DNA of 64,000 bases, from IMG/VR virus record IMGVR_UViG_3300030202_003256, positions 1,388-65,387 of that record. One strand, written 5' to 3'. The position numbers and the translations under genes are program-made. Shown piece by piece: positions 12,262 through 58,321 of this stretch. Below the pieces are notes generated by a model. That model saw nothing but the letters and a program-made list of their open reading frames with translations. It was not told the DNA's origin and ran no database searches. Position 1 is the stretch's first letter, and each line of letters starts with the position of its first letter. The DNA is from a virus (taxonomy: Duplodnaviria > Caudoviricetes).

Positions 12262-12279
12262 TATTAATATTTAAAATTT

Positions 12280-16881: not shown

Positions 16882-17242
16882 ATGATTTTTGTTCTTTAAT
16901 ATTAGACATACACACGTTATTTATTTCATTTTTAACTAAAAATCTTTCATCATTTAATTTAGCATCTAATCTAGCACATTTTATAAACTCCTCATCAAAC
17001 AAATCTCTATTTTCTCTATCTCTTATAACGTCTTCTGCGTCCCATAATTTTAAATTAACATCTTTAAGTTTTTGTACTAATTTTTCTGGTACCGCAACTT
17101 CAGAGGTTCTTAGTGTAGATTCAAGAATCATTAATTCTTTTTCTACATGCTCCAACTTTAACTTGTCAGATATTTTTTCTTTTTTAATTTGTAAGATAGT
17201 AATCTTATCAACCACTTCACCTATCGAAACTTCTATTTTCAT
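16856..17242 (-). CDS. DUF6165-like protein associated with glycan loci
   Basis: EVSIGEVVDKITILQIK..LWDAED..NDERF..EQKSY. Confidence 0.7.
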   Translation of the reverse strand: MKIEVSIGEVVDKITILQIKKEKISDKLKLEHVEKELMILESTLRTSEVAVPEKLVQKLKDVNLKLWDAEDVIRDRENRDLFDEEFIKCARLDAKLNDERFLVKNEINNVCMSNIKEQKSYEGLYSAN

Positions 17243-18147: not shown

Positions 18148-18154
18148 ATTATTA

Positions 18155-18991
18155 TTATTTTATATTTTTAATTTTATTAAAATGATAGTCCATAGTCAAG
18201 AAATCTCTACTATATAAAAAATCAAAAGAATAATTAAATATTTTACTATTAATATCCAAAATATCAATTACCGGTAAATTTTTATTTTTAAAAGATTTTA
18301 GTATCGGACCATCTTCCATTATAGGTACTGACCCCACTAAAATGGATTCGTAGTGACGATGACAATCCCAACCAGCACCACGAAGAGATAAAACGTATTT
18401 GTATTCACTCATTTTACTCAAATAATCATTAAAAGATAATCTATTTGGTTCCACCACCACAAAATCTTCTTTCGACAGGTTAGATATTATTGTATTTCTA
18501 TCTTTAAACGTATTCGAGTGATAAGGTATATATATTTTATTTTCCTTATCACCCCAAGGAATTTGGTTATTGTAAAAATTATTCAATATTTCTACATCAC
18601 CCCCCTCTCTTTCAGGTTCCTCAAACCCTATAGGTAACCAAAGTATTTTTTCATTATAGTCACTAGGTGGGTTAGTACAAAACCATTTAATTAGATTTGT
18701 ATTATCTAATATACTTAGATATGAGCTATCCCCCTCGTCAACAGAAAAAGAAGATACTCCAGTAATTAAAATAAATTTGGTTTTTATTAACGGTAATACT
18801 TGTTTTTGAAATAAACCACTATGAATATAATCGGTTTTCACAAATATTATATCACCATCTTTTAAATTATTTATATCAAAACCATTTTTGTTACCCCTAC
18901 TTACACCACATGACCTGTAAAATTCATCTGACTCATCTATACAATGGATAGCGGGTTTAGTCATGAAATTATAATTTATTAAATTAACCAT
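18155..18991 (-). CDS. Exostosin/GT47-like glycosyltransferase
   Basis: YKYVLSLRGAGWDCHRHYESILVGSVPI. Confidence 0.7.
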   Translation of the reverse strand: MVNLINYNFMTKPAIHCIDESDEFYRSCGVSRGNKNGFDINNLKDGDIIFVKTDYIHSGLFQKQVLPLIKTKFILITGVSSFSVDEGDSSYLSILDNTNLIKWFCTNPPSDYNEKILWLPIGFEEPEREGGDVEILNNFYNNQIPWGDKENKIYIPYHSNTFKDRNTIISNLSKEDFVVVEPNRLSFNDYLSKMSEYKYVLSLRGAGWDCHRHYESILVGSVPIMEDGPILKSFKNKNLPVIDILDINSKIFNYSFDFLYSRDFLTMDYHFNKIKNIK

Positions 18992-19703
18992 ATTTAATTA
19001 CGTTCCATTTTTTATTTGTCAATTTACCAATAGGTTGATTTCTAAAATCATGGTAAAATATCTTATCTGTTTTAGCGTATAAATCTATTAATGATTTCAT
19101 AGAACTCTCCATACAATGTATTTCTTCTGCTTCCTCTATTAATTTTATAAAATGAAAAATATTTTCACTAACATCATTCTCTAATACCAATAAATCTCTA
19201 TCTAAAAAATGACTACGATTAACCTCAAAACCCCTAGACTTATCGTCATGTACAAAAATAAATTTTTCTTTTTTTGGGTTTAGTTTATCCATTAACTGAT
19301 TTTCACCTACTTCATCACGTTCGACATGGAACATACTTGTTCTAACATAATATGGTACATTTACTTGTTCATAAAAAAATTCCCAACAATTTTTATCATA
19401 TAATTCTTCTTGGCCAAAAGGATAGTTCTCGAACCCAATCCTTAAAAATTTATCACATGTACTATTTTTATAATATTCCTCCGCTTGCATAACCTCTTGG
19501 GGTCCACCGGGAATTTCTACCACCAAAATATTTTCTTCATCTCTATACATGTAATCAATCATTTTAAAATAGTTAGACTTAGAAAAAATATGTATTTTAT
19601 CATATTCTTTTAAATAATTTCTTACCATCCCATTCATATCAAAATGGTCACCTAAACCTAAATGGTGATGTATACACAATTCACTTTTCATACTGTTATT
19701 CAT
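18984..19703 (-). CDS. Putative GT-B glycosyltransferase
   Basis: HHHLGLGDH N-terminal motif, FIFVHDD, AEEIHCMESS. Confidence 0.55.
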   Translation of the reverse strand: MNNSMKSELCIHHHLGLGDHFDMNGMVRNYLKEYDKIHIFSKSNYFKMIDYMYRDEENILVVEIPGGPQEVMQAEEYYKNSTCDKFLRIGFENYPFGQEELYDKNCWEFFYEQVNVPYYVRTSMFHVERDEVGENQLMDKLNPKKEKFIFVHDDKSRGFEVNRSHFLDRDLLVLENDVSENIFHFIKLIEEAEEIHCMESSMKSLIDLYAKTDKIFYHDFRNQPIGKLTNKKWNVIKYG

Positions 19704-20289
19704 TTTTATATTTTATTATTTTTTCTTCCCAACCCATATTAGTATTCCAACCATGTATCCATTTTGTTGGGTGACCAATAGGTAGGTTATGTTCTAAATC
19801 GTAAGTGTTCTCAAATAAAGATAATTTTTCTTTGGATAAAGTTAAAGGGGTTGGGTGTTTTATGGGGTTAAACACAAATAACTTATCTACAATACCTTTA
19901 TTCTCTAATATAGATTTTACTGCTTCATGTACTTGTACATGATGATAATGACCATATTCACCAGATTCACCGTGAGTTAAAATCATAGACCATTCTTTAC
20001 TATTTATCTTCTCTTGTATCGGTGTAAATATATCACCGTTAATAGGATTGGCCTGGTCATTAGACCTCCAACCCGTATCTATAAAATCTAACATTGTTGT
20101 GTTGCATTCTAGATAATCACTAACATTTTCTAAAAACATTGGTATTCTAAATTTACTTTGGTGGTCTGGTGTTACTACACAAAGTATATCCCATTGACCT
20201 TTTTCTTTTAATAGTTTTTCACCAGCCCAAATCAATTCATCATCTGCATGAGCCACAACCATTAATTTATTTGTATTTTTATATCTCAT
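19696..20289 (-). CDS. PIG-L/LmbE-family N-deacetylase
   Basis: VVAHADDE and THGESGEYGHYHH metal-binding motifs. Confidence 0.85.
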   Translation of the reverse strand: MRYKNTNKLMVVAHADDELIWAGEKLLKEKGQWDILCVVTPDHQSKFRIPMFLENVSDYLECNTTMLDFIDTGWRSNDQANPINGDIFTPIQEKINSKEWSMILTHGESGEYGHYHHVQVHEAVKSILENKGIVDKLFVFNPIKHPTPLTLSKEKLSLFENTYDLEHNLPIGHPTKWIHGWNTNMGWEEKIIKYKNE

Positions 20290-20837
20290 TTCTTTTTTAA
20301 AAATCTAATGTCCCATACTGTACCCCATCTAGGACATTCCACAACTTCGTGAGAATTAAACCCCATAACGGGAACCAATTCAAAATTAGGAAATACAAAC
20401 TCATCCACATTAATTTTATATTCCAAATCCTCTTCAACCCTATCCCCATGTAAAATATACAAACCACCGGGTTTTAACAATTTAAGTATAGTGTCGATAT
20501 ATTTTTTTTGTTCTTCTTGAGAGAATCTAATCCCATTCCAACCCAATACCCCAAAATCTAATATACAATCAAATTTATTTTCATTACCAGGATATTTTTC
20601 CAAACATTCTTGTAAAGTACAATGGAAAAATCCATCATTATTTGTACAAATTCTATTAGGTTCTAATTGCCAATATTCAACAGAGTCATTTTTGATGAAC
20701 TTATTACAATCAAAATTATAATCCTCAACACCTAAATCTAGGATGGTTCCTTGATTGATGTATGACCCTATGTTATCGTATATTTTTTTAATAAAAATTT
20801 TATCTGTCGCCGTGGACCAGTGTGAATGTGAACTCAT
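20286..20837 (-). CDS. Class I SAM-dependent methyltransferase
   Basis: ILDLGV, FDCILD, LLKPGGLYI. Confidence 0.8.
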   Translation of the reverse strand: MSSHSHWSTATDKIFIKKIYDNIGSYINQGTILDLGVEDYNFDCNKFIKNDSVEYWQLEPNRICTNNDGFFHCTLQECLEKYPGNENKFDCILDFGVLGWNGIRFSQEEQKKYIDTILKLLKPGGLYILHGDRVEEDLEYKINVDEFVFPNFELVPVMGFNSHEVVECPRWGTVWDIRFLKKK

Positions 20838-20839
20838 AG

Positions 20840-21595
20840 TTATTGGTAATTGCTCATTACAGGGTAGGTTAAATCCTGGTCTATATTTTTATGGTATTTT
20901 AAAGTTAATGGGTGGTATACATGTCCGTGTAGTACTGCCCAAGGTATTGGGTATTTAGATTTTTCTCCCGTATTTGGGTTTATGTGGTTATGGGAATCTC
21001 TAGGCCATTGAAATGGATATTTTTTTAATTCTTCTAAATACCCATCCATCTTTTCATTTAACGCATTCCACCAATCACGAGTAAAAGGAGTGTCTTTTTT
21101 ACAAATCATTAAACCACACCCGATTAATTTAGTCCAGTTATCTCTTAAATGTTGTGATGTCCAAGAACTACCATCTTTACTAAGTGTGTATTCTCTACAC
21201 TTTATTGATTTTTTTGGGTCTAACCTACAGTCTTCTAGACAAGCTGCATGATTTGGTTCTCTTTCAGCATAACCTATAGCATACAGATTTTCGTCTTTAT
21301 TTAATCTGTCAAAGTATTCAGTCCAAGGTTTGGATGTTTGTTTAATATCACTATACCCACCACCATAGTGATGCATAAAATAACATTTTAAATAATCCCC
21401 TTTTTGTATTGGTGAAAGATATTGGTATCCTTCATGTAATGGATAATCTGTTAAGATATAATTTTTTAAATTATTCTTATCTATAAACACGATATTACCT
21501 CCAGGGGCTATTTTCATTGATTCTAAGGACCTTTTTCTATTTTCTGATAGTTCGTTATCACCAGTCCACCAACAGTACGTAGTGTAGTTTTTCAT
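20840..21595 (-). CDS. GT32-like glycosyltransferase
   Basis: YCWWTG, GDYLKCYFMHHYGGGYSDIK. Confidence 0.75.
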   Translation of the reverse strand: MKNYTTYCWWTGDNELSENRKRSLESMKIAPGGNIVFIDKNNLKNYILTDYPLHEGYQYLSPIQKGDYLKCYFMHHYGGGYSDIKQTSKPWTEYFDRLNKDENLYAIGYAEREPNHAACLEDCRLDPKKSIKCREYTLSKDGSSWTSQHLRDNWTKLIGCGLMICKKDTPFTRDWWNALNEKMDGYLEELKKYPFQWPRDSHNHINPNTGEKSKYPIPWAVLHGHVYHPLTLKYHKNIDQDLTYPVMSNYQ

Positions 21596-21596
21596 C

Positions 21597-22247
21597 TTAT
21601 AAATTATAATTCATTAATATTTCGTCGTAGTAAAATACATTATATTCTTTTTTCATTAATTCACCAGCAAATTTACAATCAGCAGCTCTTCTATCATACT
21701 GATATTTTACATTTTCTGAAATATATTTTTTTATTGTTATAGGTCCATGTGCTATATTACATTCTTCGTTTGCACGAAGCTGTCCACCACCCAAACCATT
21801 ATCTGGATTCCACCAACACTTAAAAACCTTATTAGTCTCAAAACTTAAATCATTAAATTTTTTACTATCTGTTTGGTAACTATGTACTAGGGCATCACAA
21901 TCGTAATCGTTAAAAATTTCTTTAGTAATTTCTATTCTCTGTGGGTGTGGTATATCGTCCACGTCAAAGAATTGAACTACTTCCATGTTTGATTTTTCTG
22001 CCCCCTCATTTCTAGCTTGTCCTTCAGAATGCCTTTCTGTAGAATTAACCGAAATTACTGGGACCTCCTTACCAGAAATTAATACAGTGTCAATATCCAA
22101 TAGTGTTTCTTCTTCCATACCACTAGAAGATATTATTAATTCATCAGGAGCTACAGTTTGTTTTTTAACTTCATTTAACAAACTATCTAATAAATGATAA
22201 TCACCATCATAACATGTTATACATAAAGATAGTGTCCTATTTTTCAT
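21597..22247 (-). CDS. Glycosyltransferase, GT2
   Basis: QTVAPDELII, ARNEG, FFDVDD. Confidence 0.85.
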   Translation of the reverse strand: MKNRTLSLCITCYDGDYHLLDSLLNEVKKQTVAPDELIISSSGMEEETLLDIDTVLISGKEVPVISVNSTERHSEGQARNEGAEKSNMEVVQFFDVDDIPHPQRIEITKEIFNDYDCDALVHSYQTDSKKFNDLSFETNKVFKCWWNPDNGLGGGQLRANEECNIAHGPITIKKYISENVKYQYDRRAADCKFAGELMKKEYNVFYYDEILMNYNL

Positions 22248-23154
22248 TTTTTAAAGTTTTTTTAATCCATTTATTTAAATCCCCTTCAGGTGACCAATCC
22301 AAATCTAAAACTATTTTTGCATTTTCAGCCACAGAATCCTTAGGTTCAATTCTAGTCTCACCATATTTTTTATCACCACCAAACATATCAGCTATCTGAT
22401 TAACAGTAAAAGCTTTACCTGTACCTACGTTGAATATTTCACCGTTTAGATTTTTTGTTGACTCCGCACACAAAATATTTGCTTTAATAATATCGGTTAC
22501 ATGTACAAAATCTCTTTTTTGTTCACCATCGTTCACAATATTAAGTGGTTGATTTTTTTCACTTTGTTCTATAAAAACAGATATTACACTTCGATAAGCC
22601 CCCTTACTAGACATTCTATTACCATACGCATTAAAATACCTTAAACACACAGTATCTAAATTGTATAGATTTGAGTATAACTTACAGTATTGTTCACCAA
22701 CCAATTTATGTAGAGCATAAGGACTTAATGGGTTTATTGGGTGGTTTTCATCTATAGGTGTATAAGTAGGATTACCATAAACAGCGGAACTACTACTAAA
22801 TACAAATCTTTTTGCCCCTATAATTCTACTTAAATCTAAAGTATTAATTAAAGAATCTACATTATTATTGTCTGTGGGATTTTCTATTGAATATTGTACT
22901 TGTGGTGTAGCGGCCAAATGAAATACCGTATCCACATTCTTAAAAAACTTCATAGGGTATAACTCCCAATGAAACTTATTGATATTCATAGTACTCAAGT
23001 CAATATTTACGTGTACCGCTTTTGGGTTCAGGTTTTCTTTTTTCCCAGAAGATAGGTTATCAATCACAATAACTGACACACCTTTAGATATTAATTCATC
23101 TACTAAATGTGAACCTATAAATCCAGCTCCTCCCGTAACAACTACTTTTTGCAT
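22237..23154 (-). CDS. NAD-dependent nucleotide-sugar epimerase/dehydratase
   Basis: TGGAGFIGSH, SSSAVYG, YALHK, LRYFN, RDFVHV. Confidence 0.9.
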   Translation of the reverse strand: MQKVVVTGGAGFIGSHLVDELISKGVSVIVIDNLSSGKKENLNPKAVHVNIDLSTMNINKFHWELYPMKFFKNVDTVFHLAATPQVQYSIENPTDNNNVDSLINTLDLSRIIGAKRFVFSSSSAVYGNPTYTPIDENHPINPLSPYALHKLVGEQYCKLYSNLYNLDTVCLRYFNAYGNRMSSKGAYRSVISVFIEQSEKNQPLNIVNDGEQKRDFVHVTDIIKANILCAESTKNLNGEIFNVGTGKAFTVNQIADMFGGDKKYGETRIEPKDSVAENAKIVLDLDWSPEGDLNKWIKKTLKNEK

Positions 23155-23155
23155 G

Positions 23156-23791
23156 TCAAATTATTTTTTTACATAGACACTGATAAGCTCTCTCATCAGT
23201 ATTAATAGTTATATTATTTTTATTACTTAAATCATAACACAAAAAATTATATCGGTTAATCAATAAGTCTTTTATCTTATCCCAGTCATCATCAAAATGA
23301 CACTCTATAATTATATTTTTAATCCTACTATGTATTTTAGATAGACCCTCTAAAACTTTTATCTCAGCACCCTCAACATCAATTTTTATTAAATCTATAG
23401 TAGTTTCATTTATTAGTAATGTATCTAATCTAATACTAGACACAGAACCAATTTTAAAATTATCTATTGGTTCACCATTGCTATTTTTACCAATTATGTT
23501 AGTTGTGTGCGTATGTGACATCGTGCCGTCGTGATACACAGGTTCAACACCATCAATGTTAGAAGCAGCTTTATTAAGTAAAACTACATTATCTGATAAG
23601 TTGTATTTTTTATACAATCTATTAAAGTTGACCGGATGTACTTCTAAAACGTATACCTTACCAGAATCATCTAATGTTTCTAAAAAAAAATTACAGTAAG
23701 TACCTATATGTGCTCCGACATCTACAACAACACTATTGTTCTTTATAACTTTAGCAATTTCCTTGAAGTTTAGTTCGTCATGATGGTCCAT
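23156..23791 (-). CDS. FkbM-family methyltransferase
   Basis: VVDVGAHIG, IDLIKIDVEGAE. Confidence 0.9.
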   Translation of the reverse strand: MDHHDELNFKEIAKVIKNNSVVVDVGAHIGTYCNFFLETLDDSGKVYVLEVHPVNFNRLYKKYNLSDNVVLLNKAASNIDGVEPVYHDGTMSHTHTTNIIGKNSNGEPIDNFKIGSVSSIRLDTLLINETTIDLIKIDVEGAEIKVLEGLSKIHSRIKNIIIECHFDDDWDKIKDLLINRYNFLCYDLSNKNNITINTDERAYQCLCKKII

Positions 23792-23794
23792 ACT

Positions 23795-23825
23795 AAAATA
23801 TATATATTATTTTTATATTCGTAAA
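23795..23825 (-). promoter_or_regulatory. Host-type (early/middle) promoter
   Basis: TTTA-N19-TATATTTT, 3 nt before ATG 23791. Confidence 0.45.
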
Positions 23826-23829
23826 TATT

Positions 23830-24657
23830 TTAATCTAAAAATTGAGAACCAAACGTGATAAGGTCCTTATTATAATTTTCTTTTATAAACTTTAAATAAC
23901 CTTTGTGTTCACACATTTTATCATACACAGTGTAATCAAATTTAATACCCCCTAATATTTTTTCAGGTGTTTTAATTGACATAAAATCTAAATTGTTAAC
24001 TACAGGGTCATATCTTTGGTTTATAAATGTAACTGGGTGGTTGTATTTAACATATTCATAATGTTTGTACCATAATTGTTTTAAAGCATAAAACCTAGTA
24101 TTAATTGATTGTAGATGAATTACACCATAATCTTTAGTGTATTTTTTTCGTAGACTTACCTGTGGTGTCCTCGGAGTATGATACTTCCATAAAGCTAAAT
24201 TAAATTTACCAGTGTACTTAAGTGGTAAGATAAAACTACGGTGATTACTTACATAAGACGGGTCATTCCTAGTCTCCCCTAAAGTATTGTTAACAACATT
24301 GTACCAATATAGGTAAGTATCCTCCGTTTCATAACTGTTAATAACATCGGTAAAGTTATTGACTAGGTTATCCGATAATAATTCATCACAATCCATAGCA
24401 ATAACATGTGTAGCACCATTTTCTCTACTATACTCTAACATTCTAGACCTATTATGAGACTCATTAAATTCTTCTAACCCATCATTAATAATGACAGCTC
24501 TATCACCTAAATGATTTTTTATAGTATTAACCGTATCGTCGGTTGAATTATCATTATAGAACACGAATTTTTCTATAGGATAATTAACCCATATAGGTAA
24601 TAATTCAGTTAACAATAACTCCTCATTTTTTGTCATTACATTAGCGTGTACTCTCAT
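23830..24657 (-). CDS. Glycosyltransferase, GT2-like
   Basis: MTKNEE, NDNSTDDT, MDCDE. Confidence 0.8.
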   Translation of the reverse strand: MRVHANVMTKNEELLLTELLPIWVNYPIEKFVFYNDNSTDDTVNTIKNHLGDRAVIINDGLEEFNESHNRSRMLEYSRENGATHVIAMDCDELLSDNLVNNFTDVINSYETEDTYLYWYNVVNNTLGETRNDPSYVSNHRSFILPLKYTGKFNLALWKYHTPRTPQVSLRKKYTKDYGVIHLQSINTRFYALKQLWYKHYEYVKYNHPVTFINQRYDPVVNNLDFMSIKTPEKILGGIKFDYTVYDKMCEHKGYLKFIKENYNKDLITFGSQFLD

Positions 24658-24661
24658 AGTT

Positions 24662-25354
24662 CTATATTATATTGTATAGATTAATGTATACATAATCAGT
24701 AAAATATGCATCATCATCTAATATTTTATCATCCCCATCATAAGCTTGACCTATAAAATGTTTTGGGTCTCTTTTAAATTTATAAGGTTTAGATGGACCA
24801 AAAACATGACTAAAAAATTCGTCATGAGTAAATGAGTTTTGACTAACTAAAGGCCAAATTTTTTCTCTTAGAAAGTTTTGGTCTACTTGCCAAAAATCAC
24901 CTTTTACATAATCGGATATTAACTCATTCATATTAGTTAAAACGTTTGCTTTGACACCCCACATACCACCTAAAATTTCTGTAGAATGATAAGGGTGGTC
25001 TCTCATAATATGAAAGTCAAAATCGCTATCTAACCACTCCTCTACAGCATACTTTTCTCTTAAAGTTAACCTACTATCAGTATCTCTAGATAACATAACA
25101 CTAACACTCTTGTCTGCAGCGGCACTAAAACGCCAAAACATCCCAGTCCAATCACCTTCAACACCCATATCTATAATTTCTACATTATCAAACAACCTCA
25201 ACTTATCAACTATATCTTTAGGTGTACTAGTACCAACGTAAAACCTACAAATCCAATCAGGGTATATTAGTTTGGCCAATTCAACATTTCTAATAGCTCC
25301 TTTAGTATACCTTGGGTCTTCACCCCATAAACTAAAACAAATTACTTTTTTCAT
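24662..25354 (-). CDS. Putative glycosyltransferase
   Basis: KKVICFSLWG, MFWRF, SRDTDSR, HIMRDH, GGMWG, DQNFL. Confidence 0.6.
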   Translation of the reverse strand: MKKVICFSLWGEDPRYTKGAIRNVELAKLIYPDWICRFYVGTSTPKDIVDKLRLFDNVEIIDMGVEGDWTGMFWRFSAAADKSVSVMLSRDTDSRLTLREKYAVEEWLDSDFDFHIMRDHPYHSTEILGGMWGVKANVLTNMNELISDYVKGDFWQVDQNFLREKIWPLVSQNSFTHDEFFSHVFGPSKPYKFKRDPKHFIGQAYDGDDKILDDDAYFTDYVYINLYNII

Positions 25355-26055
25355 CTATATAGTTTTCTTATTTCGGTATCTTGACTAACATGTTCTTGTA
25401 ATGTAGAACGGTCAGAACTGACACCTTTAGGATTGTCGTAGTAAGTACCCACATAATCATTTAATTTTAAAAACTTACAACCTTTTTTAGATAATCTTAA
25501 CCACATTTCGTAATCACCAGAAATAGTATATTTTGGGTTAAATAGTCCATTTTTAACTATTGTGGATTTTTTTAATATAGGGAAGGGACCAAATATACAA
25601 TTAGCTAAAAGTGTCTGGTGAGTATAGTTAGGCCAATTTTGTATGCCTTTTATAATTGTGTGTTTTTCATCACCACAAACCAGACTATTAGCATAAGTGA
25701 TGTCCACTTCAGGGTTTTGTACCATTGTTTGGTATAAAGTTAGTAATCCACCAGGAAATAACCTGTCATCGGTATTAAAATTTATTACAAAATCAGTGTC
25801 ACTAGACTCTATAGCCATATTCCAAGCTTCGTAAATAGTAACTCTAGTTTTATTTTCTATAACTTTTTTAGTTATCCCGTCTCTAAACTTATAATTTTTA
25901 ATTGTTTTTAGGGAGTGGTCTGTAGAATTAGCGTCTACAAATATTATTGTAAAATTTTCTAGTAATTGGTTATTTACCGACTCCAGATAACCGTCAATCC
26001 ACCTATCTGAATTATAGTTTGAACATAGTACTGTTAGATTATCCATATTATACAA
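25351..26055 (-). CDS. Glycosyltransferase, GT2
   Basis: VDANSTD, AWN, NTDD, GDYEMWLR. Confidence 0.9.
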   Translation of the reverse strand: MYNMDNLTVLCSNYNSDRWIDGYLESVNNQLLENFTIIFVDANSTDHSLKTIKNYKFRDGITKKVIENKTRVTIYEAWNMAIESSDTDFVINFNTDDRLFPGGLLTLYQTMVQNPEVDITYANSLVCGDEKHTIIKGIQNWPNYTHQTLLANCIFGPFPILKKSTIVKNGLFNPKYTISGDYEMWLRLSKKGCKFLKLNDYVGTYYDNPKGVSSDRSTLQEHVSQDTEIRKLYR

Positions 26056-27484
26056 ATGAGTTAAATGTGTTATTATCTAGTGGCATATAAATGGATTTTT
26101 TAGTTGGGTCTTCTATTAATCTATTTTTTAGTAATATTTTTTTATGGAGTGATTGTGTGTCTTTATTTGCTATGGTGGAAACAGTACCTTCACTTTCGTG
26201 ATGGAAATAAACAAATAGTGGTTTAGGTATCCTTTTCCCAACGTAACCCTTCTGCATCATTCTTAACCACATATCATAATCCTCCCATCCTTTTAATTCC
26301 TCATCATAACCATTTATAGAATCAAAAGCTTCTCTACTAAACATTGAACAATTAACAATAAAAGGACCATTAACTAATCTTTCTTTAGACCATTCCGGTC
26401 TCTTCTCCACCCCTTTCATTTGACCCTCATGTATAGTATCACAATATATAGGACTATAATTTTTATTTTGTTTTATGACTTTTAAACATTCCTCAACATA
26501 ATTGGGATGCATTAAGTCATCTGAATCTAGAGGTAATATATATTCTCCCTTAGAGGATTTAATACCCACATTACGTGCTTTTGAGGGACCTCCGTTTTCT
26601 TGGAAGATTACCTTTGTATTAGGTATCTCTAGGTTTTTAAGTTTTATCTTTGTAAATTCGTCAGTAGAACCATCATCAACTATGACTATCTCTATATTTT
26701 TGTGTGTTTGATTAAATACCGACATAAGAGCTCTATCTAAAGTTCTTCCGTAATTATAGACTGGAATTATAATAGAAACTAATGGGTCATTTTTTTTAGG
26801 TTTAAATTCTGGCATTACTAAACTAACCATAAGTGGTAAGTTTTCAGTATATTTTTCACTAAAAATAATTCTATTTTTTTCCCATTCTTGATTAGTCTGA
26901 CCTATAGAAAGATGAGTAATATCTATATTAGAAATAACACCAACCCTAACTCCTCTTAAAAAATTTTGTACACAAAAATTTAAATCATAAAAATGAAAAC
27001 CAGTAACTGACTCATCGAAAAACGTATCTAATTTATTTTTATTAACACCAAAAAATAAACCATCGACCAAAACTGAAGGTAGAATAGACGTTCCAAATCT
27101 TGGATTATATGTAGATAACCATCTTTTACCATCGTGTTCATGATAGACCTGGCCCATCATTTCTGAAGGTATCTCCCACCATTTTCCTGATTTTGGTAGG
27201 AATCTACATCCCGCAACACCTAATATTCCGTAATCAGATTTGTGAAAATGTTTAATTAGTTTTCTCCCCCAGTTTTTTGTGTCAAATTTTATGTCGTCAT
27301 GACAAAATAAAACAATATCATTTGTGGAATCTTTTAATCCCATGTTGTAGACTTCAGTTAATGAATATTTACCAGGATTTTCGTAAGGTAAAATTTCTAT
27401 TTTATGAACTCCTGATGTTGATTTTATTAGTTTTATAAAATCTTCATTTATTTTTTTTGTACTAAATACTACTGATAATGACAT
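26048..27484 (-). CDS. Two-domain glycosyltransferase (GT-A + GT2)
   Basis: N-domain FCHDD, VDGLF, FHFYD; C-domain VSIIIPVYN, VDDGSTD, ARN, LDSDD, EDYDMW. Confidence 0.9.
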   Translation of the reverse strand: MSLSVVFSTKKINEDFIKLIKSTSGVHKIEILPYENPGKYSLTEVYNMGLKDSTNDIVLFCHDDIKFDTKNWGRKLIKHFHKSDYGILGVAGCRFLPKSGKWWEIPSEMMGQVYHEHDGKRWLSTYNPRFGTSILPSVLVDGLFFGVNKNKLDTFFDESVTGFHFYDLNFCVQNFLRGVRVGVISNIDITHLSIGQTNQEWEKNRIIFSEKYTENLPLMVSLVMPEFKPKKNDPLVSIIIPVYNYGRTLDRALMSVFNQTHKNIEIVIVDDGSTDEFTKIKLKNLEIPNTKVIFQENGGPSKARNVGIKSSKGEYILPLDSDDLMHPNYVEECLKVIKQNKNYSPIYCDTIHEGQMKGVEKRPEWSKERLVNGPFIVNCSMFSREAFDSINGYDEELKGWEDYDMWLRMMQKGYVGKRIPKPLFVYFHHESEGTVSTIANKDTQSLHKKILLKNRLIEDPTKKSIYMPLDNNTFNSFV

Positions 27485-27487
27485 TTT

Positions 27488-33357: not shown

Positions 33358-35571
33358 ATGGGAACACAAAATTTAAACAACTTTTATTTTAATAGGTTAG
33401 ATGGTAAACTAGATTATAGTTCTTACTATGATATATTTTTAGCTTCAGACGAAAAAGATTTTAACAGTGATGTTATCTGGTCTCCAAAGATAATTGATTA
33501 TGATAATGGAGAAAAGTTACCTGTATGGATAGACTTAAATACTACAGCCTCCACCCAACCAATAACAGATTGTAGTTACCAATACCCAACAGGTTTAACA
33601 CCTAGTTATTATACTGATAGTGGTTTTACACCTTTTGTTATTATAAGTAATAATAGTTGGCCTCACGCAAAATCTATGTGTGATTGTCCTTACACAGGTT
33701 TGGGATATACTATAAGCGATATTCTTTGGACTGGTTTAGATAACGGACTACTTAATCCCAAGGAAGTTTCAACAGGAAATTACTATATAGATTTATTTGA
33801 CGAGTTACCACCATCATTAATATATGATAAACAATCATATGACAAAAGGTTTAAAATGCACCAAGTAAAAGCCTATGGTTTTCCGTGGTGGGCTAATACA
33901 TTTTATACAGATACAACAATATTAAACAAGACAGATTATTCTGGGTACTACCAAGAACTAAAAGGTGGTTTCTATCAAGGATTTTATAAATTATATGGTT
34001 ATCCTTATGAGGTATTACCAACAAGACCTAAATGTGGGTGGTCATTTGAAACCTACCTTAAATTAAATACTATTTGTACTGATATTAATGGACCAGATTC
34101 ACCCTTAATTGAGGATGGCTTATCAACATACGGTGTTTACGGTAATTGTTACAATACTAGTGGTTGGTATAAGAATACTATGGGAGCTACTGGTGTAATA
34201 ACACCATTATGTAGTGCCAACCCAACAGCTTATACATATAGTTCAATTGGTCCAGAATACACTTTTAATTACAGTGCGTGGAACGGGTCCGGGATGACCA
34301 TAGGTAGGACAGATAAGTATGGTTTCTTTTTTTATAAAGGAATTAGAGCTGAAGATAAGTGGTTTCATGAAGATATGTCTTATTCTGCTTTTTCTGAGTG
34401 TGAAACTTTAACTGGTGAAACTAGTTGTTGTTATGAATGTGTGGAGACTGGGGTAGTTACTGATATATGTGATGGTCAAACAGGATTCACCACTAGTTTA
34501 GAAGACCCAGTTAAGCTGACAGGAGAAAATAAATCACCAACAGCCCAATATGATGTATACAGTAATGCAATTGGATTTAGAATTACTGATGATATGAGGA
34601 TTGGTTATAGAACTATTAGGTATACGGGTGGGTGTCAAACAACTGGAAGAACTATGTCTACTGAAATTGAAATGCAAGGGTACACTATTGATGGTCCGGA
34701 GGTGATTTCTGATTGTTATACTGGTAGTAGTTTTGATTGTGGGTATACGATAGAAGAAAGTTATTCTGAACCTATATGTGCTTTTATGACACGTAGTGGG
34801 GACTGTGCATCAAATTGGATACAGGTTGATGTGGTATTCAAAAGAAACATGTGTATGGAAGATTGTGAAATATACAACAATGGGGGAGTAAACGACCTGG
34901 TCAAGGTTAGAACAGACAGATTCCAAAGATACGGAAGACACGTAGAGACTGGTGGTGGACCTTTTGGTTGTCACCCTGAAACACCCTCAGAACCAAAACC
35001 AACCTGTAAAGATGAATATCCTTCTTTTATAGATGAGGCTTACTTTGATTTTACATGCCATGGAGCAAACGTACAACGGTGGTTCGACGAACACGAATAT
35101 AGAATGGGTACATTAACTTTTTATGTTAATGGTAGAAGGGTTCACGAAGTAAAAGATTATGAAGAAATAATACCTAGACAGTTAAATACAAATAAGCAAA
35201 CTCAGGTTGGTGTTGCTTACAACATGTCTTGGGGTGGTGGTGCTATGGGACTAAGAGAAAGTCTTATTACAGATATGGATGGGTGTACTAGTGGTTGTTG
35301 TTCAGCTTTAACATCTAATACTAGTAGTCTAATACAATGGTCCGGGGAAACAGACCAAAGACTAATTATGGAAAATTTTGCAGGTTCTTTTATCGGTGGT
35401 ATTTCACAAATGATGTACTACATAAAACCTTTAACCCCTGATGAGATTTATCATAATTTTTTAATAAATAAACAAAGATATAAACTTATAGATTGTGAGG
35501 AGTGTAAAAATTGTTACGATGGATGTGTAGACTGCAATTTAGAAAATAATCCACCACCATCAGCTTGTTAA
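33358..35571 (+). CDS. Cys-rich virion protein, probable LamG/concanavalin-like fold
   Basis: WSFETYL, LTFYVNG, FIGGISQMMYYIKPLTPDEI; many Cys. Confidence 0.6.
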   Translation: MGTQNLNNFYFNRLDGKLDYSSYYDIFLASDEKDFNSDVIWSPKIIDYDNGEKLPVWIDLNTTASTQPITDCSYQYPTGLTPSYYTDSGFTPFVIISNNSWPHAKSMCDCPYTGLGYTISDILWTGLDNGLLNPKEVSTGNYYIDLFDELPPSLIYDKQSYDKRFKMHQVKAYGFPWWANTFYTDTTILNKTDYSGYYQELKGGFYQGFYKLYGYPYEVLPTRPKCGWSFETYLKLNTICTDINGPDSPLIEDGLSTYGVYGNCYNTSGWYKNTMGATGVITPLCSANPTAYTYSSIGPEYTFNYSAWNGSGMTIGRTDKYGFFFYKGIRAEDKWFHEDMSYSAFSECETLTGETSCCYECVETGVVTDICDGQTGFTTSLEDPVKLTGENKSPTAQYDVYSNAIGFRITDDMRIGYRTIRYTGGCQTTGRTMSTEIEMQGYTIDGPEVISDCYTGSSFDCGYTIEESYSEPICAFMTRSGDCASNWIQVDVVFKRNMCMEDCEIYNNGGVNDLVKVRTDRFQRYGRHVETGGGPFGCHPETPSEPKPTCKDEYPSFIDEAYFDFTCHGANVQRWFDEHEYRMGTLTFYVNGRRVHEVKDYEEIIPRQLNTNKQTQVGVAYNMSWGGGAMGLRESLITDMDGCTSGCCSALTSNTSSLIQWSGETDQRLIMENFAGSFIGGISQMMYYIKPLTPDEIYHNFLINKQRYKLIDCEECKNCYDGCVDCNLENNPPPSAC

Positions 35572-38774: not shown

Positions 38775-39782
38775 ACTGGTAATAACCCAACAAGATAATT
38801 CTTTAACAAAAACCAACTCAACACAACTATCACCATCCAGGTCTATTGTGTCCCATTTATCGTCAATTTTACCTATATCGGATTTTATTATTACGTTAGC
38901 TAATGATTTAACTTTTACTTTGGTGTCTTTACTAGAGTTAAGTGTTAATACACACTCCCCATTAACCACTATTAAATGTTCACCATTAGTTGTATAATCT
39001 TCAGTTATTACTTTAGTTACAGTATCAACCTCTCTTCTTTCATCATAAACACCTACACCATTTTTGTGTAAGTTTTGTATTAAACTCAATAGAGACACAG
39101 ACAAAAGTTTATATTGTATATTATCTGGTCTTCCTTGACCATCATATATTACAAGTTCTTTATAACCTAATTCGTGTAAGTCTTCAGCCATTAAACCAAA
39201 ACTATCTACACCATTTTGTACGTACCTAAAAAAGTAACTATTTAAATCTAATAGTTTATTATAATGTTCGTCTGGTATTTTTCTTAATTCTTGTTTATAC
39301 CTCATAGATGATGAGGCACCTTTTACCACATTACCATCTTCATCTAATTGTAAATCAACAACACCACTCATTAGATTGGCATCTACTAAACCTAATTTAT
39401 TTATCTGTAAGGTACTAGCACTAATACCAGGATTACTAGTTGCCCCACTCAATATCTCCATTGGTGGTTGGTTAAGAGCTATGACGGATGACATACCTGT
39501 TACAGCAGAAAATGCGGTAACTGTGACATTACATGAAGCTGAGGTTGAGGAGTATGCTCCCACAACAAAAGTATATCCAGTTGTACACGCACTACAACCA
39601 CAAGCTGCTCCACCCTCTTCATACCAAGAAGCCGGTTTATAAACAGAAAACGAACCATCACCAGTAATACCAGAATACACATTTAAATTTTGTTCCATCA
39701 ATGTAGAACCAGAAAATCTAGCCGTAGTTTCTGACGGTTGTTTTAGTTGTCTTGAATAATCTACTTTAGTATAAAAAGCCAT
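38751..39782 (-). CDS. Tail fibre/appendage protein with peptidase S74-like chaperone domain
   Basis: SSMRYKQE..FGLMAEDL..ELVIYD..IQY..LL..IQNL. Confidence 0.7.
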   Translation of the reverse strand: MAFYTKVDYSRQLKQPSETTARFSGSTLMEQNLNVYSGITGDGSFSVYKPASWYEEGGAACGCSACTTGYTFVVGAYSSTSASCNVTVTAFSAVTGMSSVIALNQPPMEILSGATSNPGISASTLQINKLGLVDANLMSGVVDLQLDEDGNVVKGASSSMRYKQELRKIPDEHYNKLLDLNSYFFRYVQNGVDSFGLMAEDLHELGYKELVIYDGQGRPDNIQYKLLSVSLLSLIQNLHKNGVGVYDERREVDTVTKVITEDYTTNGEHLIVVNGECVLTLNSSKDTKVKVKSLANVIIKSDIGKIDDKWDTIDLDGDSCVELVFVKELSCWVITSSDGLKNS

Positions 39783-45176: not shown

Positions 45177-48100
45177 ATGGCAGACGGTAATAAGGTATTT
45201 GTTTCTCCTGGTGTATATACATCAGAGAAAGATTTAACATTTGTAGCACAAAGTGTTGGTGTTACAACATTAGGTTTGGTTGGTGAAACTTTAAAAGGAC
45301 CAGCCTTTGAACCAATATATATTTCATCTTATGATGACTTTGTAACTAGATTTGGTGGAACATCACCAGAATTATATGTGGATTCTCAAATCCCTAAATA
45401 TGAGTTGGGGTATATTGCAAAATCATATTTAAGTCAATCCAATCAATTGTTCGTAACAAGAGTATTGGGTCTTAGTGGTTATGATGCAGGACCTTCTTGG
45501 TCGGTACAAACAATAGGACAATTAGAACCGTCAGGTCTTGAGCATTCTTATTCTGCTTTAACTTCTTCTTCAGGAACTACAGTACCATTTTTTATACCAC
45601 TTACTGGTGATAGTTATTATTCTGGTACCACAGTTGGTGCCGATGCTTTTACAAGTGCTGCTCTTAGTACACCATTCTGGACAAGTATACCTTCAGAGTT
45701 AACAGGTATTGATTTTGGTTCTTGGTCAGAAACAGGACAAACTATTACATTAAATGACGGTACAACACTTTCTTCATTTAATCAATCATTTTTAAATTGG
45801 GCACAGGCCGCTATAATACTTAGTAGTGATACTCAATTTAACGACGCTTTATCTTCTGGTGATACTGGTGGGTGTACATATGGGGTGGACCCATGTATAC
45901 CAGTAGCCTTAGATGGAACCATATATCAGTATGGTTGTATACCAGAATATTTAACTAATACAGCAACCGGTCTAACAACAGACTCACTATCAGCTTTTAC
46001 ATTTGCAAACTCAACAACAGGAACTAGTTCTAGTGTGAGTAACATACTCTCAACTAATTGTAGTGACTTAACTTCTTATGAAAACGACCCTTGGTATTAT
46101 GGACTATTTGAATATACGGGAAGTACTTCATGTTGTACTGGTACAACATACAGTGGATTGTCATACCAATTATACGCAAGTGGTTATACTTCAGGACTTG
46201 GACAACCTATGGAACAAGCAACTGGTACAACTTTGGATAGTACTGGTGGTACAATTGTTGTTTTATCTGGATACGCTGTTTTCGACATTATAAATTACCA
46301 AGGAGTAACCGCTAATACTGAGTGGGATGGTATGGACATTCTAACATTTAGGTCTAGAGGTTTAAGTTCTCTAGGTAGTGGTGGTCCAGTTTACGCAATA
46401 AGTGCTGATACAGTAGGTAATTTAGAATTTGATTGTAGTGGAGCCTATGAAGCGGTACTTGAAGACCCATTTGCTACATTTGGAATTAGTGCAAGAACTG
46501 ACGAAGGTAATGTTTATACTTTTGAAACTTCTATGTCTAATACAGCTCAGAATTTTGCACCTAGAGTATTCGGTAGAAGTCCTTTTGATAAAAAACAAGT
46601 TGACGTACCTGTTTTTGTTGAGGAGGCTTACCCAACAATACTTAATATTGGTAGAAAATTAGGTAAAGTTAGAGGGTTACAGTGTTGTTTACAATATTTA
46701 CCAGCAGCAAGAGAAACGGTTAACACAAATACTATAGCTTGGTACATGAATCAATGGGAAACACCTGAAACACCTTACATAGTATCTGAATTACAAGGTA
46801 GTGATGTGTTTAGATTATTTAAATTTGTTTCTATATCTGATGGTACAGCAGCAAATAGAGAATATAAAGTTTCTATAGTTAATCTTTCGTTTGAAAGAGC
46901 TGAATTTGATATAATCGTAAGAGATTTCTACGATACTGACGCAAATCCAGTTGTGTTAGAGAAATTTACTAGATGTAGTCTAGACCCAACTAAGGTATCT
47001 TTCGTTGGTAGAAAAATAGGTACTTCTACTGGTGAATTCGAGTTAAGGTCCAAATATACTATGTTATACCCAACAGAAGCTTTACTAGATGGTACATATA
47101 CCGGTTCTTTACCAGCTGGTTTTGAGGGTTACAGATTTAGAAGATACGGTAATTGTGGTGTAAACCCAAAAATTATATATAAAACAAAATACTTAAACCC
47201 AGGTGAAGTAGTATTTGACCCACCTTATGGCTCAACTACTGGTAATAATGTAATAAGAAGTGGTGGTGATAAAGTTAGTAAAGTCTATTTAGGTGTGTCT
47301 AATAGTACAGGAGCCGGATATGATGCTGACTTCTTTGACTTCAAAGGATATCTACCACCAACAAACATTTGTACAGGAACTGCTGGTTCACAATGGGATG
47401 TAATAACTAAAGGATTCCACATGGATTCTGGAGCCACAGTAGTACTAGGTGGTGTAGGAACTTATTTAAACTGGTCAGCTACAACATTAAATGATAAACC
47501 TATTTTTGATGTAGGGGCTGGACAATTTAATACAGAACCTACTTTAAGTACTGAACCTTATAAATCATTGAGGTCACGTAAATTTACAATAGCACCTCAT
47601 GGTGGTTTTGACGGATTTGACATTTATAGAAAAACTAGGTCTAATACTGACGACTACAGAATGGGACTTACAGGTTTCTTAAACGGAGCTTGTACTAGTG
47701 CGGATTTCCCTACAGCAACTGGAGATGGTTCATTTAAAAAACTTAATACAACGGAAGCTAATACAGATTATTTCGCTTACCTAAGAGGTATAAATGAATT
47801 TAGTAATCCAGAATCTGTAGATATTAATGTATTTGCAACACCGGGAATTGACTACGTGGATAATTTAGGTTTGGTAAATGAGTCTATAGATATGGTAGAA
47901 ACTGATAGAGCTGATTCATTATATATAACAACAACACCAGATTATAACATGTTTGTAACAACAAATTCTGACCCAGCAAATCAGGTAACACCTGATGAAG
48001 CGGTAGATAATATAGAAGATTCTTTAATAGACTCTAACTATACAGCAACTTATTATCCTTGGGTTCAGATTAGAGACGCAGCAAATAACAAACAACTCTA

Positions 48101-48653
48101 CATACCACCAACGGCTGAGGTTATGAGAAATATAGCTTTAACAGATAATATTTCTTTCCCATGGTTCGCATCGGCAGGTTATACAAGAGGTTTAGTTAAC
48201 GCGGTTAAAGCAAGAAAGAAATTAACTTTAGATGAAAGAGACACTTTATATGTTGGTAGACTTAACCCAATCGCTACATTTAGTGATACGGGACCAATTA
48301 TTTGGGGTAATAAAACACTACAAATTAGAGAGTCTGCTTTGGATAGAATTAATGTACGAAGATTGTTATTACAAACTAGAAAATTAATTTCAGCGGTAGC
48401 AGTAAGATTAATATTTGAACAAAATGATGACGTGGTTAGACAACAGTTCTTAGACTTAGTAAACCCAATCTTAGACTCGATTAGAAGAGATAGAGGTTTA
48501 ACAGACTTTAGAGTTGTACTTTCAAATGACCCAGAAGAAATAGATAGAAATGAAATGAATGGTAAGATATACATTAAGCCAACAAGAGCTTTAGAGTATA
48601 TATTCGTTGAGTTCTTGATAACACCTACGGGGGCTTCTTTTGAGGATATATAG
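45177..48653 (+). CDS. gp18: Contractile tail sheath protein with large insertion
   Basis: VSPGVYTSEKD, TYYPWV, PWFASAG..RG, WGNKTLQ, DRINVRRLL, IKPTRALEYI. Confidence 0.95.
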   Translation: MADGNKVFVSPGVYTSEKDLTFVAQSVGVTTLGLVGETLKGPAFEPIYISSYDDFVTRFGGTSPELYVDSQIPKYELGYIAKSYLSQSNQLFVTRVLGLSGYDAGPSWSVQTIGQLEPSGLEHSYSALTSSSGTTVPFFIPLTGDSYYSGTTVGADAFTSAALSTPFWTSIPSELTGIDFGSWSETGQTITLNDGTTLSSFNQSFLNWAQAAIILSSDTQFNDALSSGDTGGCTYGVDPCIPVALDGTIYQYGCIPEYLTNTATGLTTDSLSAFTFANSTTGTSSSVSNILSTNCSDLTSYENDPWYYGLFEYTGSTSCCTGTTYSGLSYQLYASGYTSGLGQPMEQATGTTLDSTGGTIVVLSGYAVFDIINYQGVTANTEWDGMDILTFRSRGLSSLGSGGPVYAISADTVGNLEFDCSGAYEAVLEDPFATFGISARTDEGNVYTFETSMSNTAQNFAPRVFGRSPFDKKQVDVPVFVEEAYPTILNIGRKLGKVRGLQCCLQYLPAARETVNTNTIAWYMNQWETPETPYIVSELQGSDVFRLFKFVSISDGTAANREYKVSIVNLSFERAEFDIIVRDFYDTDANPVVLEKFTRCSLDPTKVSFVGRKIGTSTGEFELRSKYTMLYPTEALLDGTYTGSLPAGFEGYRFRRYGNCGVNPKIIYKTKYLNPGEVVFDPPYGSTTGNNVIRSGGDKVSKVYLGVSNSTGAGYDADFFDFKGYLPPTNICTGTAGSQWDVITKGFHMDSGATVVLGGVGTYLNWSATTLNDKPIFDVGAGQFNTEPTLSTEPYKSLRSRKFTIAPHGGFDGFDIYRKTRSNTDDYRMGLTGFLNGACTSADFPTATGDGSFKKLNTTEANTDYFAYLRGINEFSNPESVDINVFATPGIDYVDNLGLVNESIDMVETDRADSLYITTTPDYNMFVTTNSDPANQVTPDEAVDNIEDSLIDSNYTATYYPWVQIRDAANNKQLYIPPTAEVMRNIALTDNISFPWFASAGYTRGLVNAVKARKKLTLDERDTLYVGRLNPIATFSDTGPIIWGNKTLQIRESALDRINVRRLLLQTRKLISAVAVRLIFEQNDDVVRQQFLDLVNPILDSIRRDRGLTDFRVVLSNDPEEIDRNEMNGKIYIKPTRALEYIFVEFLITPTGASFEDI

Positions 48654-57205: not shown

Positions 57206-58321
57206 ATGACTGGAACAACTAATTATAAAAATATTATAAATAACTTTGTTGGAAACAGCAAAGCTTATAGTCTAGATGTTAAGAATAGATTAACAAACCT
57301 TTTTTTATTTAACAATATGGGTGTTGTGGAAGAACTTATGCATTCTAGAACTTTTAATTTAGGAGAACTAGGTGGTAACGAAAGTATTGGGGGTTTAATA
57401 ACTAATCTAGTGGGTGTACCAAATGACCTCTTCCAAAGAGTTAATAATTATTACACAACACTTAAAACAGCAATCAGTGCTGAAACAACAAGTATACAAG
57501 TAAGTTTTAATACACTAAACCCAACAGATAACGAAAAGCTGTATATTAAAGAAACACTAAACAAAACACTAGAACATCAATTTGAGTATATGACTAATAA
57601 TCTACTTCTAGTCGTAAATAGTTTAAGAAAATCACAATTTGATTTAACCAAAGTTGTGGACAAATTAAATTTTATAACAGTAAATGCTTATGACGGGTAT
57701 TACCAAAATACTTTTGGTGGGTTAGTCACAACACAACAACTAACATCATCAACAACAACACTGATACAAGCTTATACAGGTGATAGTTTAAGTTTAAGTA
57801 ATTTTATTACTGAATATGTTAACCCTATTTTTACAAGAAATTATCCAGCAGCAACATTGATAAGAGGTATAGAATATTTATTCTTTTCTAATCAGGTATA
57901 CACAAATAAGAGTTTATCGTTTAGTTTTGATGGCAGCTATGAAGAAGAATTGAAAAAATTAATAAGATTTAGAGAAGACCAACTATACAATAATCTACTA
58001 AAAGTGGATGAAAATGGTTTTAAAGGTATAAAAGTAAGAACTAAAAGAGGTTTTGAACCACTTTTAAACGACATGATTAAAACTTGGATTAATTATGATT
58101 TAAAATTTTTTAGACCTAGAATTACAAATGGTATAGAAACCGGTTATGAGATTTTAGACGGTCAACTAACTTCATACACTAGTGATTTTAATATTGAGTT
58201 TGGTACCACAACAGGTGCAACGGCACAAAATTTATTGAGAAATAATTTACGTGAAAGAACTGGAGGTGTACAAGATAATAAATTTAATTTTAAATTAGAA
58301 AGACAACTAATTATTAGTTAA
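57206..58321 (+). CDS. Hypothetical structural protein
   Basis: 371-aa ORF in baseplate operon. Confidence 0.6.
   Translation: MTGTTNYKNIINNFVGNSKAYSLDVKNRLTNLFLFNNMGVVEELMHSRTFNLGELGGNESIGGLITNLVGVPNDLFQRVNNYYTTLKTAISAETTSIQVSFNTLNPTDNEKLYIKETLNKTLEHQFEYMTNNLLLVVNSLRKSQFDLTKVVDKLNFITVNAYDGYYQNTFGGLVTTQQLTSSTTTLIQAYTGDSLSLSNFITEYVNPIFTRNYPAATLIRGIEYLFFSNQVYTNKSLSFSFDGSYEEELKKLIRFREDQLYNNLLKVDENGFKGIKVRTKRGFEPLLNDMIKTWINYDLKFFRPRITNGIETGYEILDGQLTSYTSDFNIEFGTTTGATAQNLLRNNLRERTGGVQDNKFNFKLERQLIIS

Follow-up and report, generated by a model that had tools for sequence, protein, structure and literature searches.

The [ST]-[GA]-x-T motif in the tail sheath and other proteins of an uncultured marine T4-like phage clade, a candidate O-glycosylation sequon

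The stretch of DNA studied here, which we refer to as the window, covers 64 kb of a 65.4-kb viral contig (IMG/VR record IMGVR_UViG_3300030202_003256) with a G+C content of about 31-34%. Its gene content is T4-like, with genes for a gp23-type capsid protein, a tail sheath protein of 1158 amino acids (aa), a gp19-type tube protein, a baseplate hub, a gp25-like wedge and a gp13-like neck protein. A DNA polymerase of family B and an SNF2 helicase are also encoded in the window, and a long run of sugar genes is located on its minus strand. We focus on a short motif, [ST]-[GA]-x-T, that is densely repeated in the tail sheath (45177..48653, plus strand; Pfam Phage_sheath_1C, PHROG 23) and in a few other proteins, and that we tentatively consider to be a phage O-glycosylation sequon. 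In total, 17 copies were identified in the sheath, of which 15 are located in an insert at aa 120-445 (45534..46511, plus strand), starting at aa 126, 132, 149, 186, 227, 264, 272, 314, 321, 335, 349, 356, 378, 409 and 438. The two further copies start at aa 751 and 767.

The closest deposited phage is Microcystis phage Mel-JY01, with which the sheath shares 31% identity. Metagenomes are rich in relatives, several of the records carry Tara labels, and some of the related contigs are 210-424 kb in size; the window contig is therefore a fragment of a jumbo-phage lineage. Its source is an uncultured clade of marine T4-like jumbo phages. Seven large contigs were taken in full for comparison, of which six belong to this clade and one, G011, to another lineage.

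Outside the sheath, ten copies of the motif were found in a cysteine-rich protein of 737 aa (33358..35571, plus strand) that could not be assigned to a family and for which a weak Laminin_G_3/ConA-like match is the only lead. This protein has 31 cysteines, with a C-terminal cluster (aa 713-737, CxxCxxCxxxCxxC-like) and CC pairs next to copies of the motif. Seven copies are located in the N-terminal part (aa 24-124; 39411..39713, minus strand) of a fibre-like protein of 343 aa (38751-39782), which has weak matches to Peptidase_S74 and the tail-protein family PHROG 1330 downstream of the motif-rich part. Six copies were identified in a 501-aa protein without a family (2159..3664, minus strand) and three in a 371-aa protein encoded between baseplate genes (57206..58321, plus strand). 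The capsid protein (TAQT, aa 324) and the gp13-like protein (SAGT) contain a single copy each, and the DNA polymerase and the helicase none. An initial annotation of the window had listed about 15 tetrapeptides in the sheath insert, and exactly those 15 were recovered; its counts for the other proteins, including the two zeros, were also right. It had called the carriers of the motif virion proteins, which is proven only for the sheath, as the 343-aa protein has weak matches to tail-fibre chaperones and the 737-aa and 501-aa proteins belong to no family. The tail tube protein (50761-51249, plus strand) contains no copy of the motif, and its 52 pooled homologues, which are about 93% identical and not independent, have 0 copies as compared to 11.3 expected.

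We compared the copy numbers to those in 2000 shuffles of the whole sequence and 2000 shuffles within blocks of 20 aa. The 15 copies in the sheath insert compare to 2.5 ± 1.5 in the whole-sequence shuffles and 2.7 ± 1.5 in the block shuffles, and 15 copies were reached in 0 of 2000 shuffles in either scheme. Likewise, none of the 2000 shuffles in either scheme reached the counts of the 737-aa protein (10 copies, with 1.3 expected from whole-sequence and 1.8 from block shuffles) or the 343-aa protein (7 copies, 0.5 and 0.8 expected). In the 501-aa protein, the six copies exceed the 0.9 expected from whole-sequence shuffles (0/2000) and the 1.3 expected from block shuffles (p=0.0005). The signal in the 371-aa protein is weak, with three copies vs 0.6 (p=0.03, whole sequence) and 1.1 (p=0.09, block).

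Control motifs of the same composition were counted in the sheath insert. The form with one more residue, [ST][GA]xxT, occurs at background (2 vs 2.4 expected), as do the motifs with an altered order of residues (T.[GA][ST], 2 vs 2.4; [ST].[GA]T, 3 vs 2.4; [GA][ST].T, 1 vs 2.5), and the Ser-ending motif [ST][GA].S shows no excess (3 vs 2.4). A mild excess was found for the gapless form [ST][GA]T (6 vs 2.5, p=0.04). This form is also raised over the whole sheath (10 vs 3.6), with 4 conserved columns in 45 homologues. Fifteen of the 26 [ST][GA] dipeptides in the insert are followed by x-T (58%, vs a Thr frequency of 14%), Ser or Thr precedes 15 of the 19 [GA]xT patterns, and Gly or Ala is the second residue in 15 of the 21 [ST]xxT patterns. 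All three fixed positions of the motif contribute to the excess. The top three gapped tripeptides in a tally over the four rich proteins were SG.T (14 vs 1.9 expected), TG.T (13 vs 2.2) and SA.T (9 vs 1.1), with G.T as the strongest pair (47 vs 22).

Codon usage within the motif is that of the background, with Ser codons of both families, which rules out a cause at the DNA level and places the signal at the level of the protein. A shared domain or an internal repeat was also ruled out, as the best match in an all-against-all BLAST search had E=0.026 and no self-repeats were detected. Known sequons are not enriched in the five segments: D-[ST]-[AILVMT] was found at background (3 vs 2.1 in the sheath insert, and 7 vs 5.6, 1 vs 2.7, 2 vs 1.6 and 0 vs 2.3 in the others), and N-x-[ST] and [DE]-x-N-x-[ST] were at background in all five. 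The description given in the initial annotation, a motif with fixed spacing and a free third position that is common to unrelated proteins and different from the Bacteroidota sequon, is thus borne out by the control motifs, by the lack of detectable homology between the rich proteins and by the background counts of D-[ST]-[AILVMT] and N-x-[ST], to which we add that the fourth position is specific for Thr. As for the controls on composition, the motif exceeds the shuffles and the form with two free positions is at background, but the gapless form is not entirely so.

The excess extends over the relatives. Nearly all of the 120 metagenomic sheath homologues are enriched, with 7-22 copies as compared to about 3-5 expected (7-17 vs 3.0-4.3 in the 45 close homologues and 16-22 vs 3.8-5.3 in a subgroup of longer sheaths); the homologue P0066 has 1 copy vs 1.5 expected. 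When homologues over related loci were pooled, with counts that are not independent of each other, we obtained 749 copies vs 222 for the sheath, 82 vs 10 for the 343-aa protein and 17 vs 5.0 for the 371-aa protein. Pooled homologues of the tube, the hub and two large baseplate-region proteins were at or below expectation, and those of the polymerase and helicase at expectation. Observed and expected totals per contig were 52 and 21.6 (G000), 56 and 29.5 (G004), 55 and 28.3 (G005), 179 and 87.2 (G001), 139 and 56.8 (G002), 123 and 45.6 (G003), and 137 and 64.3 (G012). All six clade contigs are enriched overall, and each encodes several large enriched proteins, such as one of 2948 aa with 36 copies vs 10.6. 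None of 17 large motif-rich proteins of the relatives matched a PHROGs family, so that a virion role for these is suggested by size and position only. The unrelated lineage G011 is not enriched (60 vs 49.8), and neither is Mel-JY01, with 1 copy vs 1.5 in the sheath and 12 vs about 12 in the sum of 16 structural-region proteins. These results show that the motif excess is clade-wide and not inherent to the sheath fold or to T4-like virions.

Positions of the motif were followed in alignments. In an alignment of 45 sheaths, the motif is present in 60% or more of the sequences at eight columns, as compared to 1-4 such columns per control motif. Five of these sites keep the motif class only, with exchanges between Ser and Thr and between Gly and Ala, a free x, a fixed Thr and variable surroundings. 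Among ten diverse sheaths with 67 motif columns, 31 columns are private, 20 are common to two sequences and 6 to five or more. The six orthologues in the 737-aa family contain 10, 9, 10, 8, 9 and 10 copies (1-2 expected), which are spread over 38 motif columns. Of these columns, 26 occur in a single sequence and just 3 recur in four of the six. All nine copies in the G001 orthologue and nine of the ten in the G012 orthologue are private, and individual gains and losses of the motif are visible where the surrounding alignment is good. Sites of the 343-aa family move between neighbouring columns, and in the 501-aa family (six orthologues) three motif columns are common to 4-5 sequences and the rest are lineage-specific. 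Judging from these alignments, fixed places and a kept number both occur, with the 737-aa family as the clearest case of a kept number. Turnover at a steady copy number is how a motif that is selected for number behaves, and not a pattern needed at set structural positions. The motif is real, is under selection as a class and behaves like a recognition site.

We examined the surroundings of the motif at 384 sites across the clade, of which orthologous sites are not independent. Pro is nearly excluded at x (3/384 sites), Lys, Arg, Asp and Glu are depleted from -3 to +5, and position -1 is often hydrophobic or Cys. Cys is enriched 2.6 times at -1, 2.4 times at -2, 2.0 times at x and 2.2 times at +6. 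An AlphaFold2 model of the sheath had a mean predicted local distance difference test score (pLDDT) of 63.5, with a poorly modelled core and a moderate insert (39-91 in blocks of 10 residues). Inserted domains of the model have values of 70-90, as compared to less than 50 in the conserved core (residues 1-101 and 871-1060), likely because the core folds only in the polymer. Position 1 of the 17 sheath sites is modelled as coil in 9 cases, strand in 5 and helix in 3, and position 4 as coil in 10, strand in 5 and helix in 2, while the background of all Ser and Thr residues at aa 102-810 is 96 coil, 41 strand and 19 helix. In the model, the sites thus appear to have no single secondary-structure context and to match the Ser/Thr background. 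A Foldseek search of the sheath model against the PDB identified sheath cores only and no match for the insert, and a profile of 63 sheaths matched PDB sequences in the C-terminal core only; these C-terminal 290-345 aa (approximately) are the only part matching solved sheaths such as T4 gp18. The protruding domains of T4 gp18 are formed by the region that follows about residue 100 as an insertion. For the 343-aa protein, the model (mean pLDDT 50, with residues 24-157 below 50) was too poor for mapping of sites.

The sugar genes at 8769-27484 on the minus strand encode about 10 glycosyltransferase (GT)-like proteins, Gmd, Fcl, two DegT aminotransferases, epimerases, methyltransferases, a NUDIX protein and a PIG-L-type deacetylase, as identified with Pfam (35 genes scanned, E<=0.001). 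A two-domain soluble GT (26048..27484), which consists of an N-terminal Glyco_tranf_2_5 domain (PF13712) and a C-terminal GT2 domain according to Pfam, is a candidate priming enzyme. A pair of genes codes for a GT-A-like protein of 265 aa (8769..9566), with a weak Glyco_tranf_2_2 match, and a protein of 353 aa (9578..10639) that is GT-B-like according to a language-model lead only. Fcl (GDP-L-fucose synthase) and Gmd (GDP-mannose 4,6-dehydratase) are encoded at 12280..14194; their NCBIfam scores are below the cutoffs (Gmd 405 bits, cutoff 415; Fcl 226 bits, cutoff 500) and the Pfam match to GDP_Man_Dehyd has E=2.6e-120. The remaining genes (14191..26055) form a variable sugar island with the NUDIX, DegT, epimerase, methyltransferase and PIG-L genes and about seven GT-like genes, as assigned by Pfam. 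No hydrophobic membrane-type segment of 19 residues was found in the sugar locus, and all GTs in the window are predicted to be soluble. The Pfam search of the sugar block identified no flippase, polymerase, lipid-carrier primer or oligosaccharyltransferase. A 124-aa open reading frame (ORF; 10662-11036, plus strand) overlaps the minus-strand genes, has one hydrophobic segment and no homologue in five relatives, and is probably not a gene.

The N-terminal PF13712 domain of the two-domain GT has 48-84% identity in G004, G005, G001, G002 and G012, and PF13712 was also found in the more distant clade contigs G006 and G008 but is absent from three short fragments. The domain fused to it varies, being GT2 in the window and G004 and GT4 in G001 and G002, and the protein is shorter in G005 (365 aa, no second Pfam domain) and in G012. 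The 265-aa GT is present with 42-88% identity in 5/5 relatives that span the region and was found only in clade contigs in the viral-contig scans, and the 353-aa protein is kept in the same 5/5. Directly beside this conserved pair, a 234-aa protein without a family (8065..8769, minus strand), identified by orthologue mapping, has 39-95% identity in 5/5 relatives spanning the region and contains two copies of the motif vs 0.1 expected. A tblastn search with the PF13712 domain and the 265-aa GT against 50,697 deposited phage records gave no match, the complete genome of Mel-JY01 lacks PF13712, and the viral-contig scans for the conserved GTs recovered clade members only, plus four distant matches at 28-35% identity, one of them in G011.

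The island, which is located between conserved PhoH and dUTPase-like genes (window 11515-28093) and begins with the gene that retains PF13712, is common only to the closest relative, G004, in its part 14191-26046; G005, G001 and G002 carry other glycan genes at this site. Since motif-bearing relatives carry different islands, the large island is not tied to the motif. Genes in the islands of the relatives encode GT10/GT11 fucosyltransferase-like proteins, GT17, GT25, GT4, a radical SAM enzyme and a CMP-sugar synthetase-like protein. The island of G005 (L107:14729-16396, L108:670-2215) has a B12-binding radical SAM protein, a transketolase-like protein and a shikimate-dehydrogenase-like fragment among the GTs, which hints at an unusual sugar. 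The many soluble GTs and the GDP-fucose genes of the phage are in line with the phage-specific system that had been suggested at the outset.

We consider a phage O-glycosylation sequon to be the best reading of the [ST]-[GA]-x-T motif, with a probability that falls just short of an even chance. Selection would maintain the number of copies on some of the particle proteins that face outwards, namely on the inserted domains of the sheath and on three or four proteins that are fibre-like or unassigned. A soluble phage GT would most likely attach an O-linked glycan to the motif Thr, or else to the Ser/Thr at position 1, acting in the cytoplasm of the host ahead of assembly or while it proceeds. 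A conserved enzyme would prime the site, for which the PF13712 domain of 26048-27484 is a candidate, possibly together with the pair 8769-9566 and 9578-10639. Extension and decoration of the glycan may then fall to the second GT domain of the fusion and to the exchangeable island, with its methyltransferases and its synthesis of GDP-fucose and amino sugars, so that one anchor motif would bear different glycans in related phages. Modification of the motif, the identity of its reader and the presence of the island's product on the virion are all inferences.

A number of observations weigh against this reading. Avoidance of the motif in other proteins was sought in this contig and in the relatives and not found: the other 58 ORFs of the contig contain 12 copies vs 15 expected, which is neither excess nor avoidance, and the ratio of observed to expected copies in the remaining proteins of the relatives is 0.8-1.16, like that of control motifs. 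Recognition of a target therefore has to depend on context beyond the four residues. Several proteins of the tail and baseplate region are unenriched (957 aa, 0 vs 1.4; 634 aa, 1 vs 1.1; 1789 aa, 2 vs 2.4). A typical sheath homologue has 13.5 copies, about half of them at the eight conserved columns, and the variable columns contain 6.9 copies per sequence vs 2.8-6.2 for control motifs. Three of the conserved sites (aa 321, 751 and 767) are located inside the invariant blocks CC[ST]G.TYSG, MDSGATVV and WSGTTLNG. G011 has a distant PF13712 homologue (33% identity) without motif excess, and the co-occurrence of GT and motif is one clade-level event that is inseparable from shared ancestry; no independent GT-bearing lineage was found in the deposited phage records or the viral-contig scans. 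Also, no protein-glycosylating member of PF13712 was found in the accessible parts of the literature, which included work on Acinetobacter lipooligosaccharide loci.

The eight conserved columns, the three invariant blocks and the lack of avoidance also speak for the main rival, a purely structural preference in which the motif starts, ends or caps beta strands in the outer domains, is read by no enzyme, and the GTs serve another target. We judge this explanation to be unlikely, though far from negligible. It can account for the persistence of sites 409, 438 and 751 in 14, 9 and 9 of 18 distant sheath homologues, for the frequent hydrophobic residue at -1 and the exclusion of Pro at x, and for the position of 11/17 motif Thr residues within 2 residues of a strand/coil boundary in the sheath model, as compared to 38/83 for all Thr, an apparent mild excess. 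However, the modelled secondary-structure contexts are mixed and equal to the Ser/Thr background, sheaths and T4-like virions outside the clade manage without the motif, there is no excess of Ser at position 4, and the positions in the 737-aa family turn over at a constant 8-10 copies. A generic turn preference should moreover reach the other beta-rich proteins of the clade, whereas the homologues of the tube, the hub and the large baseplate-region proteins are at or below expectation.

Selection for density and conservation at the level of the class fit any reader, and the motif might be recognized for something other than a sugar, such as phosphorylation, acylation, a cross-link with neighbouring Cys, or docking of a chaperone or decoration protein. 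The enrichment of Cys beside the motif, with strings such as TGSTSCCTGTT, and the B12-binding radical SAM enzyme in the island of one relative would agree with this. Yet Cys occurs at any one neighbouring position in only about 8% of the sites, Pfam identified no kinase, lanthipeptide-type enzyme or acyltransferase among the window genes, and the abundant conserved enzymes at hand are GTs; we regard a non-sugar function as rather improbable. The GTs could on the other hand be unrelated to a real motif, with its reader, if any, being a host enzyme. The island might instead act on DNA or on glycans of the host surface, which is a further point against glycosylation at the motif: it is variable and not tied to the motif, it adjoins a dUTPase/dCTP-deaminase-like gene, and DNA glucosylation and serotype conversion are known roles of phage GTs, according to the accessible part of a paper on aquatic jumbo phages (PMC12619734). 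This is quite improbable, given that the conserved GT core tracks the motif-bearing clade, that assembly of host-surface glycans normally needs lipid-carrier, flippase or ligase steps, none of which is encoded here, and that a hydroxymethylase was not identified by Pfam in the genes scanned. One might also suspect an artefact of composition or shared ancestry, as the rich segments are rich in Ser, Thr and Gly and the pooled homologue counts are not independent, but it is close to refuted: the excess stands over block shuffles, five of six control motifs of the same composition are at background with only the gapless form mildly raised, the conditional tests hold, the codons are varied, and diverged orthologues have made independent private gains.

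The complete scheme of a phage-encoded cytoplasmic O-glycosylation with a tetrapeptide sequon, a PF13712-GT primer and an O-antigen-like swapped island, which would provide marine jumbo phages with "virion serotypes", is a possible but somewhat doubtful combination. If the motif is such a sequon, an abundant, uncultured lineage of marine phages would commonly have its tails and fibres coated with glycans. The exchange of sugar islands would then add a new dimension to the diversity of phages, which might affect adsorption, stability, grazing or recognition. A short sequon read by a soluble enzyme would also be useful for cytoplasmic glyco-engineering. No acceptor sequon of a phage system, and no description of this one in phages, was found in the accessible literature on phage virion glycosylation and sequons, in which glycosylated phage particles are documented only for mycobacteriophages among phages.

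In the general O-glycosylation system of Bacteroidota, the glycan is built on a lipid carrier and transferred in the periplasm to the sequon D-[ST]-[AILVMT]. The motif studied here resembles this system in being short, centred on Ser/Thr and common to many unrelated surface proteins, but the Bacteroidota sequon itself is at background (3 vs 2.1 in the sheath insert) and no lipid-carrier genes were identified in the window. Of the components of en-bloc glycosylation of the PglL/PglB type, no initiating phosphoglycosyltransferase, flippase or oligosaccharyltransferase was identified by Pfam and no membrane segment was found in the locus, although host enzymes could substitute. Another parallel is SgtA of Clostridioides difficile, a soluble GT-A enzyme that adds O-linked N-acetylglucosamine to Thr in Gly-x-Thr of BclA3, as described in the accessible part of the source (PMC7157674). 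Likewise, G-x-T is enriched in the proteins studied here (47 vs 22). In the same account, however, SgtA combines GT-A with tetratricopeptide repeats (TPR) and its acceptors are collagen-like GPT repeats, whereas the sites in the phage clade are dispersed, with Pro at x in 3/384 and no internal repeats. No TPR family was identified by Pfam in the 35 genes of the minus-strand block, and only generic GT2 similarity was detected (E=0.0014 for the GmaR chain).

Mycobacteriophages encode their own GTs, and glycans have been located at the C-termini of capsid and tail-tube subunits (reported in the accessible part of PMC12619734). The systems are alike in that the GTs are phage-encoded, with Pfam GT matches in about 10 genes here, and glycans are added to the particle proteins inside the host cell in mycobacteriophages. 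They are unlike in that the motif, as opposed to mapped glycans, is found here in sheath inserts and fibre-like proteins, with one copy in the capsid protein and none in the tube, in that no sequon of this form is reported in the accessible account of mycobacteriophages, and in the types of host and phage. The chlorovirus PBCV-1, according to the accessible part of the source (PMC5408694), has soluble virus-encoded GTs, some of them multi-domain, that glycosylate in the cytoplasm at sites outside the usual sequon. Its glycans are N-linked to Asn in the major capsid protein of a eukaryotic virus, with no Ser/Thr tetrapeptide described there, whereas the motif studied here points to Ser/Thr on sheath and fibre-like proteins. 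Yet soluble virus-encoded GTs are found in both, along with genes for nucleotide-sugar synthesis in the window and fucose and methylated sugars in the glycans of PBCV-1.

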